Origin: a virus
Lineage: Duplodnaviria; Heunggongvirae; Uroviricota; Caudoviricetes; Straboviridae
DNA: 64,000 nt
Direction: 5' to 3' (one strand)
IMG/VR virus record: IMGVR_UViG_638275431_000001
Location: 83,196-147,195 of that record
Shown here: one piece after another, positions 19,949 through 22,956 of the stretch
Position numbering within the stretch: the stretch's first letter is position 1
Layout of the letters: every line of letters begins with the position of its first letter
Program-made: the position numbers and the translations under genes
Notes under the pieces: model-generated
Told to the model about the DNA's origin: nothing
The model's input: only the letters and a program-made list of their open reading frames with translations
Database searches by the model: none

Positions 19949-20472
19949 TTTTTATTTTTCTCCAATTGATAAATTGCTTTGCGCAAAAGTTTGACTTTCA
20001 TATCAGCGGGGATATGCTCTTCGTGAACAAATTGGTCAAGATGAGCCTTTTGGCTGTTTGCACGAGCAGTGACGATTACCACATTTTCCAGCGTGTATCC
20101 GACTTTGGGGTTTATGCGCTCAATAGAACGGCCATGGTCTTTCGGGAAAACAGTACCAGTGTATGCGCATTTTTCGACTTGCATCAATTCAACAAATTGT
20201 TGAAAAGTTATACGCCACTCTAGACCTCGTTCTTCGCAACTTTTTACTTTAACTTGATACGGTTGCAAGTAACGCTTATTTGCACTAAAGAAAGTCATGT
20301 ATTCAATTTGACGAGCAACTTCATCTCGTTCAGCTTGAATTTTTTCTTCAATTTCAGTGTTGCGTTTCTCTCGGAGAATTTCAAAATGATGCTTTTTGAC
20401 AGGTTCAGGAGCTTTGACTGAGGCCGAAGCAATAGCATTGTAGCGTTTAAGCATATCCATTCTAGATGACAT
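19945..20472 (-). CDS. srd: Srd-like protein (T4 postulated sigma decoy; His-Me-finger-like motif)
   Basis: ITFQQFVELMQVEKCAYTG...SIERINPKVGYTLENVVIV matches the recalled T4 Srd pattern LDFNYIKNILDQKVCAYSG...SLERFDNNVGYIKGNVIAV. RBS GGAG precedes ATG 20472. Confidence 0.65.
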   Translation of the reverse strand: MSSRMDMLKRYNAIASASVKAPEPVKKHHFEILREKRNTEIEEKIQAERDEVARQIEYMTFFSANKRYLQPYQVKVKSCEERGLEWRITFQQFVELMQVEKCAYTGTVFPKDHGRSIERINPKVGYTLENVVIVTARANSQKAHLDQFVHEEHIPADMKVKLLRKAIYQLEKNKK

Positions 20473-20540
20473 TTTTAATACTCCGTGAGTTTGGTTTTTC
20501 ACTATGGGAGCATTTTAACCAAACTCACGGAGAATGTACA

Positions 20541-20942
20541 TCACTTTTTGTTGAATTTGTTTAGCAAAGCTTCAAGCTCTTCTCTTGTTGGCCTAGCGGG
20601 CATGTTAGCCGAGGCTCTAGAAATCTCAAGCGATTTCTCGGGAGTCAGTGTTGACGGCAAAGTCTCAAAAGTTTTGTCTTTAGCGCGATTCCGAGCTTTG
20701 AAGCGACCATCATTTTGATGCCGCTTAGGATTCACAAAGTGCTTCCGATACACTACCGGTTCTCGGGTAAGAGCTTCCAGATGATTGTCGCGCATTTCAT
20801 CAACTTCTTTAACGACATCGATGACATTTGTCGCACGAATGTCATACATTTTGGCGATTTGTACGAATCCGTGCTTCATTTCGCGAAACATGAAATGCAC
20901 TTGTACCTTTTCGGCTGACGAAAGCTCAGAAATATTACGCAT
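20541..20942 (-). CDS. Small protein resembling T4 gp24.3 (DUF2774-like)
   Basis: VHFMFREMKHGFVQIAKMY...REPVVYRK pattern; locus downstream of gp24. Confidence 0.45.
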   Translation of the reverse strand: MRNISELSSAEKVQVHFMFREMKHGFVQIAKMYDIRATNVIDVVKEVDEMRDNHLEALTREPVVYRKHFVNPKRHQNDGRFKARNRAKDKTFETLPSTLTPEKSLEISRASANMPARPTREELEALLNKFNKK

Positions 20943-21418
20943 TTTCTTCTTCCTTTTGCTCTTGAATCCAAATATTCAGTTTGGCATAAGCCGACTTGGT
21001 ATTTCAAAGTACGTTCTTGGCCTTTGACTGTAATACCTTTCAGCCGACGAACATCAGAATTGTGTCTAAGATCAAAGCACTTCACTTTCGCTGATCTGAC
21101 ATCCAATTTGACTCGATCGAGATATTCCTCGTATTTTTCACCAGCGCGCTTTGTCAGATTATCCACAAGTTGACGCATTTCGGCGCCAAAAGTGATCTCG
21201 ATCAAATCTAGTGTCTTTGCAACACCCAACGAACTATCCTCTGCACAATCGCGAAGCACGCACAGAATTTGAACATCAACGTCTTCGTTGGCATGTCTAG
21301 CCCAATGCATCAATTTCAATGGGTGCAAAATATACGGATTTCCGCCTTTGTCGAATTGATCAATGTGAACGCCCACGGCAAAACTAATGGCATCTGCGAG
21401 ATCCTTTTGAGATCTCAT
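20935..21418 (-). CDS. RelA/SpoT-type HD-domain small alarmone hydrolase (SAH/Mesh1-like); probable one-base frameshift near the 3' end
   Basis: AISFAVGVHIDQFDKGGNPYILHP, LRDCAED (canonical LHDxxED), LVDNLTK, KVKCFDLRHN. Removing one base near 20990 gives AYAKLNIWIQEQKEEENA* overlapping the next ATG. Confidence 0.8.
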
Positions 21419-21663
21419 TACGAATACCTCATAGTGACTTGAATTGGTCGCGAACGGAACGACTGTGGGAGTCTGGCGCCCTCTTCGATCTTGAGAGTGT
21501 CATTTCCGTTTTCATCGGTTCGATCTTCTGCCGGGCAAATAGAATCAACGTAAGCTTTAATGCCTTCGATAATTTCTTCTTTTGTCTTTGGCACTATCGC
21601 ACCGCTGATAATATGGTCCGGACGGTTTGTTTTGAAATTGAAGTAAGTTGTCGTGAATTTCAT
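21418..21663 (-). CDS. Hypothetical protein (81 aa)
   Basis: ATG at 21663 follows the stop of the upstream ORF (21668); its stop overlaps the SAH start. Confidence 0.6.
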   Translation of the reverse strand: MKFTTTYFNFKTNRPDHIISGAIVPKTKEEIIEGIKAYVDSICPAEDRTDENGNDTLKIEEGARLPQSFRSRPIQVTMRYS

Positions 21664-21667
21664 CTTT

Positions 21668-22006
21668 CTAGTCGCTCGATTTACCAAATGGAATCTGTTC
21701 AACAAAAGCCCAGGCAGCATGGTAAACCGTCGCGCCTGGCGTTTCAGACATAAAGACTGTGTCAACTGGTGCAATAACTCGAAATAGCGTTGGATCGCCA
21801 CCAATAGAACGAGCAGCACGTCTAGCATAAACCTTGGCTAGACCGCGGTCTTTGGTGAAAAACACGCGATCCAAGTTCTTTTTCCGGCCCTTCTCGGAAA
21901 TCGTGTCCGTTGCTTCAGGTGGAAGAAGCATATCACCTTTAAGGCCGAGTGTACAAGAGCCATGATAAAACTCGACATAATCGTCTCTGCAATGGATTGT
22001 TCTCAT
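21668..22006 (-). CDS. Putative Arr-like (H-type) ADP-ribosyltransferase
   Basis: RBS AAGGAG. FYHGS...GDMLLPP...RVFFT...GGDPTLFRV parallels Arr LHGT...GDRLVPG...HIYIT...GRGRIFIV. Confidence 0.55.
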   Translation of the reverse strand: MRTIHCRDDYVEFYHGSCTLGLKGDMLLPPEATDTISEKGRKKNLDRVFFTKDRGLAKVYARRAARSIGGDPTLFRVIAPVDTVFMSETPGATVYHAAWAFVEQIPFGKSSD

Positions 22007-22067: not shown

Positions 22068-22826
22068 CTATTTTATGAATTGTTGACGCTGGTTTTTGAT
22101 CAACCGATCTTTGATTTTTTCCGTAAGCAGACGAACTCGATGCATTTTGCCCGGGTCAGCAATGTATCCGTGTTCAAAAATCACTATCTTTGAATATTTG
22201 TCGTTATGTTGTGTTTCAGAAAAAGTAATCGGTAATGCTGAAGCATAAACGAATGAATCGACTGAGGCATTGAGCAAAATTCCGCCAGATGAGATTATGG
22301 AAATTGCAGCTCGTTCATATTCGTTTTTTACAATTTTTACAAATTTTTCGATGTCGAATTCTCGGTCATCAGCAAATCGAGCATACATTAAACATAAAAT
22401 AGCTTTAGCGTACCACTGTGCTTTGTTGTAATCGATACCGTCATCTGGATAGTCACGCAGTTTTGCAAGATGCGCAAGAGCCATTTTCTTTTTGAATTCA
22501 CGTCTGAGTTCGAGCAGAGTATCGATTACGTCACGTAGATTATGGCCATTGAGGTTGAAATCGCCGAAATAGTTACGCAAAATCGTCGGATACATCAGGG
22601 AATACGACGATTCCCATATCGGGCCGTCAATTGCAACTGGATAAGTTGTTGCGGTGTACATCAAATCATGAAATTGGATTTGAAACCGCACATTACGGTT
22701 CTTGGATGTGTGACGAATTGGCGAATTTGGGTCAGTGAACATTTTCTTGGCATCAGCGACAAGCACTTTGCCTTCGATGGCTTGACTATTTTCCAAAATC
22801 GTATTTTCTAATGCCGATTTCAGCAT
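22068..22826 (-). CDS. Stand-alone degenerate family-B DNA polymerase palm/fingers-like protein
   Basis: SSYSLMYPTI (cf. DFxSLYPSI), GHNLRDVIDTLLELRREFKKKM (fingers helix), QWYAKAILCLMYA (cf. QxxxKxxxNSxYG), LNASVDSFVY (cf. YGDTDSIFV), in the correct order. Confidence 0.6.
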   Translation of the reverse strand: MLKSALENTILENSQAIEGKVLVADAKKMFTDPNSPIRHTSKNRNVRFQIQFHDLMYTATTYPVAIDGPIWESSYSLMYPTILRNYFGDFNLNGHNLRDVIDTLLELRREFKKKMALAHLAKLRDYPDDGIDYNKAQWYAKAILCLMYARFADDREFDIEKFVKIVKNEYERAAISIISSGGILLNASVDSFVYASALPITFSETQHNDKYSKIVIFEHGYIADPGKMHRVRLLTEKIKDRLIKNQRQQFIK

Positions 22827-22900
22827 AATTTCCTCACTTTCGATTAGGAAGATTCCTTAATTATTCGGAACCTTGTGAATTGTTCAAAGTTGGCAAAGCC

Positions 22901-22930
22901 ATCATAATACGTTTTTCTAGAAATGTAAAC
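22901..22930 (-). promoter_or_regulatory. Early promoter (GTTTACA-N17-TATGAT) driving the accessory island
   Basis: T4-type GTTTAC -35 element directly after the hoc terminator. Confidence 0.75.
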
Positions 22931-22956
22931 AAAAAAGGAGCCCGAAGGCTCCTTTT
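22931..22956 (-). terminator. Intrinsic terminator after hoc
   Basis: Minus strand ggagcc-ttcg-ggctcc-tttttt. Confidence 0.85.

Follow-up and report, generated by a model that had tools for sequence, protein, structure and literature searches.

What does a small protein resembling the core of a family-B DNA polymerase (PolB) do in a phage that encodes its replicative polymerase elsewhere? The question is raised by a gene in a 64,000-nucleotide stretch of DNA (hereafter the window) from a T4-like phage of Aeromonas, a close relative of Tulanevirus with a genome of 161 kb. We confirmed that this gene (22068..22826, minus strand) is a real open reading frame encoding a 252-residue PolB-like mini-protein of palm and fingers, here called mini-PolB, which belongs to PHROG 7204, function unassigned. 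It is flanked by hoc and by a run of small genes that includes srd, with gene 24 beyond, and it lies far from the gp43 locus, as had been predicted (gene 43A is about 83 kb off). The protein is 92–94% identical to its counterparts in phages 60AhydR15PP, phiAS4, Aes012 and Aes508.

Homologues occur in Tulanevirus, Biquartavirus, Ishigurovirus and Ceceduovirus phages of Aeromonas and, beyond Aeromonas, in Pseudotevenvirus (RB16, RB43, Lw1), Slopekvirus (KP27) and Vibrio Ackermannviridae. The family extends over several hundred sequenced T4-like and Ackermannviridae genomes, Klebsiella KP27-like phages included; a few Klebsiella phage records annotate the product as DNA polymerase and most as hypothetical. 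The order uvsW, inh, hoc, mini-PolB, srd is common to the window, RB16 and KP27, and the gene order of the window recurs in 44RR. We did not find the mini-PolB gene in T2, RB69-like, JD18-like, CC31, RB49 or phi-ST2 phages, in searches that detected the positive controls.

Fold and active-site residues

An exhaustive HMMER search recovered 10 true relatives (23–94% identity) together with one spurious match, and neither mini-PolB nor its homologues produced a Pfam match; PF03104 was seen at gene 43A only and not in mini-PolB. A profile of 13 homologues compared with PDB sequences retrieved family-B polymerases only (three of three matches, E 0.02–0.12), and in the alignment motifs A, B and C and the first fingers helix fall in register with PolB. 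The four PolB segments quoted in the original prediction were all present in the order it gave, and because the homologue profile retrieves only PolB with the motifs in register, the motif A, B and C segments are not a chance likeness.

An AlphaFold2 model of mini-PolB built on the homologue alignment (mean pLDDT 88, pTM 0.80) yielded PolB for all of the best 50 Foldseek matches in the PDB, and a TM of 0.71 against a PolB from the Atlas. A wide VIA search ranked 16 PolB-fold chains first (best Z 10.7), and a second look gave Z 11.6 and an rmsd of 3.0 over 178 residues against residues 335–603 of Tgo, a range comprising the post-exonuclease linker, the palm and the fingers. Profile and structure searches thus both found the PolB fold that the original prediction had anticipated, with the palm/fingers fold recognized in the predicted structure. 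The thumb starts where the match ends, and with only 252 residues and a structural match stopping at about Tgo 603, mini-PolB has neither thumb nor exonuclease domain, as had been claimed from the sequence. Herpesvirus UL8 was also among the fold matches. Three unnamed viral proteins in BFVD with a similar fold (A0A514A7I6, A0A2I7SB81 and A0A7S5SJV7; 343, 266 and 245 aa, respectively) are possible further members of the family. An ESM Atlas feature search with mini-PolB gave no result, and word-based homologue and locus searches gained little. A weak single-sequence PDB match had suggested a retron RT (E 0.6, via YADD-like residues in motif B), a reading that was dropped because profile and fold both point to PolB.

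Residues were counted over 21 homologues spanning Aeromonas, RB16/RB43-like, KP27-like and Vibrio Ackermannviridae phages, with RB69 numbering transferred via an RB69-like gp43 of 903 aa. In motif A (residues 70–82; 22581..22619, minus strand), S74 stands in place of the catalytic aspartate (RB69 D411), the Asp-to-Ser change that had been noted earlier. Across the family this position holds Ser (11), Thr (3), Cys (2), Gly (2), Glu (1), Ala (1) or Gln (1), and Asp in 0 of 21; in known palm polymerases, this aspartate binds both metals. The steric gate, Y79 (Y416), is aromatic in all 21. On the first fingers helix (residues 104–112; 22491..22517, minus strand), R108 (R482) is invariant and K112 (K486) is always basic (21 of 21 for each). 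Motif B (residues 137–149; 22380..22418, minus strand) retains its Lys/Asn/Tyr set with Cys for Asn in the window protein: the K141 site (K560) is Lys or Arg and the Y148 site (Y567) Tyr or Phe in 21 of 21, and the C145 site (N564) is Asn in 15 and Cys in 6.

In motif C (residues 186–191; 22254..22271, minus strand), the second aspartate, D190, corresponds to catalytic D623 and is invariant (21 of 21), while the first is variable and present in 4 of 21. The change of DTDS to SVDS had been taken as a sign of a dead enzyme; the change is there, but what survives as D190 is the second, catalytic Asp. Enzymes that lack just the first motif C Asp can still be active (PMC7544198), and the argument for an inactive enzyme therefore depends on motif A. 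The last palm strands (22164..22208, minus strand) carry the family-specific H207 (in 18 of 21 homologues; the Vibrio clade lacks it) and Y221, which is the KKRY tyrosine. The KKRY lysines, which in polymerases grip DNA, are gone in the Straboviridae members, the window protein included; Vibrio members retain DTD and a KRY-like motif, and three of them partly keep the lysines. We assume that H207, placed by counting from the KKRY Tyr and not by coordinates, may sit near the metal site or near a conserved acidic residue after motif C.

Read from these residue counts, the site has kept the side that faces the incoming nucleotide and has lost one metal ligand and the grip on DNA. Mini-PolB is a stand-alone derivative of the PolB palm and fingers with a retained nucleotide pocket, probably unable to polymerize. 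Fold, motif A loss and the kept pocket support the earlier reading of a polymerase-derived, likely dead fragment, and the earlier interpretation taken as a whole is partly supported.

Promoter, neighboring genes and structured leader

An early-type promoter match (22901..22930, minus strand; GTTTAC, 17 nt, TATGAT consensus) stands ahead of mini-PolB, where an early promoter had been proposed; the genome contains 27 sites of this type in total, all of them on a single strand. In 44RR and UP87 a promoter match lies at the same position, and a sigma-70 promoter is annotated at the corresponding place in KP27. In Asfd_1 and phage 65 the gene lies behind other small genes, with no early-type promoter in the upstream DNA read. 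From the promoter we infer early expression of mini-PolB. Directly ahead of the promoter is an intrinsic terminator after hoc (22933..22956, minus strand), predicted to insulate the gene from late transcription.

Beside mini-PolB lies an Arr-like ADP-ribosyltransferase-type gene (21668..22006, minus strand; 112 aa) with its own promoter (22065-22037). Its product has HGS and VFFT motifs, its Atlas features match Arr-type ADP-ribosyltransferases at 0.96, and it is very conserved (67–96%). The gene adjoins or is near mini-PolB in Aeromonas, RB16/RB43 and KP27 phages and is 2.6 kb off in VAP7, making it the usual neighbor of mini-PolB, with an unproven link between the two. A longer call for this gene, from 22048, overlaps its promoter. 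Most of the 27 early promoters have an inverted repeat across the -10 box, formed by a half in the spacer and the sequence just downstream (for example 22065-22030), which is absent from the mini-PolB promoter.

Several observations concern genes around mini-PolB and its homologues. The 136-aa ORF call at 21418-21828 (minus strand) is too long; PHROG 7668 matches from residue 56 only, a start that fits the gp30.6-like gene of 44RR. The gene at 20876-21418 (minus strand) encodes a metal-dependent phosphohydrolase of the HD type, which the 44RR annotation likens to (p)ppGpp enzymes; its C-terminus in the window is altered relative to homologues of 155–161 aa, possibly by a frameshift or sequence error. 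In Vibrio Ackermannviridae a phage gene for a GroEL-type chaperonin precedes the mini-PolB homologue by one or two genes (loci L003 1517-3097, L026 845-2416 and L028 1-519), and in two metagenomic phages a Band 7 gene follows the homologue (L007 3672-4715 and L042 3879-4937), with NADAR and NAMPT genes following it as well in one of them.

What hints best at the control of the gene is a conserved structured leader that was absent from the original prediction. Each of the 19 homologue loci read has a hairpin some 30–45 nt ahead of its start codon. In the window, hairpin 1 (22851..22872, minus strand) has a covarying stem and a conserved 10-nt loop (22866-22857) and is a candidate translational operator, and hairpin 2 (22832..22848, minus strand) is a predicted weak stem with a GNRA-type loop over the ribosome-binding site. 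A stem over this site appeared in 19 of 19 predicted folds, each time weak (-1.3 to -5.1 kcal/mol).

We counted hairpin 1 pairing in ten loci of one group, whose proteins range down to 21% identity with that of the window, and found that 48 of 50 stem positions pair, compared to 15–25 of 50 in slid controls, under a loop with the consensus GARUMAUURA. Watson-Crick pairs numbered 44, versus 24 ± 4 when arms were swapped between sequences, and five of six stem pairs vary on both sides in an alignment of seven sequences. A covariance model made from these seven leaders returned three held-out loci as its top matches (E 1e-5 to 7e-4), each directly ahead of the start codon; the held-out loci are relatives of training members and not fully independent. 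Scans with the model found hairpin 1 as a single copy in the window genome, 44RR and Asfd_1, with no second site in the window phage genome, which fits self-control and not a regulon. The model misses the leaders in the clades of phage 65, RB16 and Vibrio. At the corresponding position, the phage 65, RB16/KP27 and Vibrio clades carry loop types of their own, identified by visual comparison and folding.

The leader also stands apart among the 27 early-type promoters: 23 are followed by leaders of 31–49 nt that fold more weakly than -5 kcal/mol and three showed no ribosome site and start, compared to 77 nt and -13 kcal/mol for mini-PolB. Rfam has no family for it. A DNA pattern scan of viral contigs gave mostly chance matches, and its three full-stem matches were close relatives with the gene behind each. 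Most simply, a single-copy hairpin with a constant loop before one gene family would be that gene's own operator.

There is a known precedent in the polymerase gene itself: T4 gp43 represses its own translation via a hairpin about 40 nt upstream, whose RNA crosslinks to the palm, and in some T4 relatives gp43 does not autoregulate (PMC3014915). The mini-PolB leader likewise has a hairpin at about that distance (30–45 nt) before the start codon of a PolB-fold protein, just behind a promoter and with a variable stem, and six of eight loop-core bases match the operators of T2, JD18-like and CC31 phages. However, its loop is 10 nt and closed by G-A, whereas that of the operator is 8 nt and closed by U-G or C-G; its core is UAAU and not UAAC (or UAAA); and it carries an extra stem over the ribosome site and precedes a non-replicative gene. 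A loose operator-like test was passed by three of 265 gene starts in the genome, among which mini-PolB has the longest stem, and the leader covariance model misses the gene 43 operators of T2, JD18-like, CC31, RB69-like and RB49 phages. Nine mini-PolB carriers have no T4-type operator at gene 43 (the VAP7 start was not found), and four operator-bearing phages lack the mini-PolB gene. This pattern is weak because the four operator phages all belong to one subfamily and phi-ST2 lacks both features. The mini-PolB leader and the gene 43 operator share the same architecture, a resemblance only, and their common descent is possible and unproven.

Proposed function and competing explanations

We tentatively propose, at somewhat less than even chances, that mini-PolB is a non-polymerizing protein that binds both a nucleotide and its own mRNA, its synthesis keeping pace with a ligand that it titrates. 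It would be a pseudo-polymerase whose family-B palm and fingers are retained as a binding module; lacking two-metal DNA synthesis and a hold on primer-template, it would still bind a nucleoside triphosphate. Made from a promoter read by the host polymerase early on, free mini-PolB would bind hairpin 1 of its own mRNA and, with the help of the stem over the ribosome site, halt its own translation, a self-repression modeled on that of T4 gp43, which acts through its palm. Output would thereby be matched to uptake by the true ligand, a nucleotide or a nucleic acid of host or phage, and such a self-limited supply would fit an accessory titrating protein of early infection. The fold, the residues, purifying selection, the intact gp43 of carriers and the gene-specific leader all count for this explanation. 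Against self-repression stands a leader loop that is near-constant though the proteins are about 21–25% identical, which may point to a more conserved binder, such as gp43, RegA or a host protein. The only mild positive charge of the homologues (net -4 to +13) and the failure of the covariance model on gene 43 operators and on the phage 65, RB16 and Vibrio leaders also weigh against the proposal.

A further reading, to which we give a small chance, is that a minimal, dead copy of a PolB gene assumed the role of RNA-operator binding and kept the dNTP pocket, becoming a nucleotide-responsive repressor or titrator. If true, this would also explain the lost autoregulation of gp43 in some T4 relatives.

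The proposal is not fully exclusive with three of its competitors, namely a decoy, an enzyme working with one aspartate, and control of the leader by another factor. As a decoy, mini-PolB would occupy a host sensor of phage polymerase early in infection, and gp43 would later bind the leader and shut the gene off; the early-type promoter, the accessory region between hoc and srd and the likeness of the leader to the gp43 operator would fit, and defenses that sense polymerases exist (PMC13581612, PMC13728456). We nonetheless consider a decoy unlikely. Avs19, a family A sensor, is triggered by a polymerase core domain with or without its catalytic Asp (PMC13581612), so a dead core could trigger a sensor as well as block it. 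A decoy should also look like the phage's own gp43, yet mini-PolB matches gp43 with weak scores (HHalign 2%, from an uninformative two-sequence gp43 alignment), and what is conserved is the inner nucleotide pocket, in a gene held in one place across distant genera.

Similarly doubtful is an altered active site, built from D190, H207 and the basic residues of the fingers, in which a nucleotide would be transferred or hydrolyzed, for example on an RNA end or a signaling nucleotide. The invariance of D190, the presence of H207 in 18 of 21 members and the whole triphosphate pocket speak for such an activity, as do the DTD and KRY-like motif of the Vibrio members, and a catalytic Asp retained for so long suggests metal binding. 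However, none of the 21 members has the motif A Asp, no acidic residue consistently replaces it, and the Vibrio clade lacks H207.

We think it rather improbable that the leader is independent of mini-PolB, damping translation, stabilizing the RNA or serving as a site for RegA or a host factor, with the protein a plain nucleotide binder. Hairpin 2 alone could damp translation, and the loop is AU-rich like RegA sites, but RegA sites are unstructured (PMC3014915), the pairing of a constant loop with a stem free to covary typically marks a specific binding site, and the motif occurs at no other gene in the genome. The chance that mini-PolB is a structural subunit of the replisome or another complex, comparable to herpesvirus UL8 or the C-terminal half of Pol epsilon, seems slim: precedent exists and UL8 is among the fold matches (PMC7544198, PMC4304020), but the gene is not part of the replication cluster, was not found in T2, RB69-like, JD18-like, CC31, RB49 and phi-ST2 phages and encodes no evident gp45-binding tail, and UL8-type proteins do not need an intact nucleotide pocket.

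Selection, gene 43 and comparison with known systems

Substitution rates indicate that the mini-PolB gene is under purifying selection, with a dN/dS of 0.08 between the window and 44RR (dS 0.99), 0.04–0.25 in most other pairs and 0.43 for RB16 versus RB43. Although gene 43 of the window phage is indeed split (43A and 43B), it is hardly credible that mini-PolB is a decaying relic or a piece of split gp43, a reading largely refuted by selection (dN/dS 0.08) and distribution, since 43A and 43B already hold intact motifs A, B and C, and RB16 and KP27 carry the mini-PolB gene alongside an unsplit gp43. We conclude that the gene is not a relic and does not supply a part missing from the replicase. 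Mini-PolB is too diverged for a tree, and in both sequence and structure it matches archaeal and alpha-type PolB more closely than gp43; nothing in the sequence or the model appears to link it to gp43 more than to other PolB.

Gene 43 has features of its own in these phages. A group I intron (RF00028, 64 bits) in gene 43B interrupts motif B (minus strand, genome ~20160-20490; L013 4160-4488), and a free-standing endonuclease-like ORF lies between 43A and 43B. Phage 25 presumably also has an intron in the gene 43 region. A split gene 43 with an endonuclease has been described for phage 25 (PMC2988022). In Vibrio phage 1.244.A, the replicative polymerase is seemingly in two frames about 3 kb apart (L164, L168).

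A literature search with subscription journals largely outside its coverage returned no description of the mini-PolB family or its leader. The observation is real: mini-PolB is a probably inactivated PolB of new form with a newly noticed conserved RNA leader, and these data suggest an undescribed, tightly regulated phage protein. The leader makes its function directly testable, offering a defined RNA site and a small soluble protein. If mini-PolB binds the leader, it would provide a 250-aa model for RNA recognition by a polymerase palm, for which a 2010 review lists no structure (PMC3014915).

Among known systems, mini-PolB shares with family B polymerases (RB69/T4 gp43, Tgo/KOD, Pol alpha and E. 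coli Pol II; PF00136) the palm/fingers fold, the order of motifs A, B and C, the steric gate, the equivalents of R482, K486 and K560 and the second motif C Asp. It differs in having 252 aa with no exonuclease or thumb, in lacking the motif A Asp family-wide and the KKRY lysines in most members, in lying below Pfam detection and in lacking the insertions of gp43. Terminator hairpins beside early promoters in the variable region near hoc recall the PeSL cassettes of T4-type phages, but PeSL stem-loops are repeated terminators (PMC2839356), whereas the mini-PolB leader hairpin lies downstream of its promoter, is single-copy and is tied to one gene family. Eukaryotic cells and viruses have inactivated PolB proteins that act as large structural subunits; herpesvirus UL8, chordopoxvirus F12 and the C-terminal half of Pol epsilon are, as mini-PolB probably is, non-polymerizing PolB folds that exist beside an active replicase. 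In contrast to these large subunits, mini-PolB is minimal and encoded by bacteriophages, keeps its nucleotide pocket and has a structured leader of its own.
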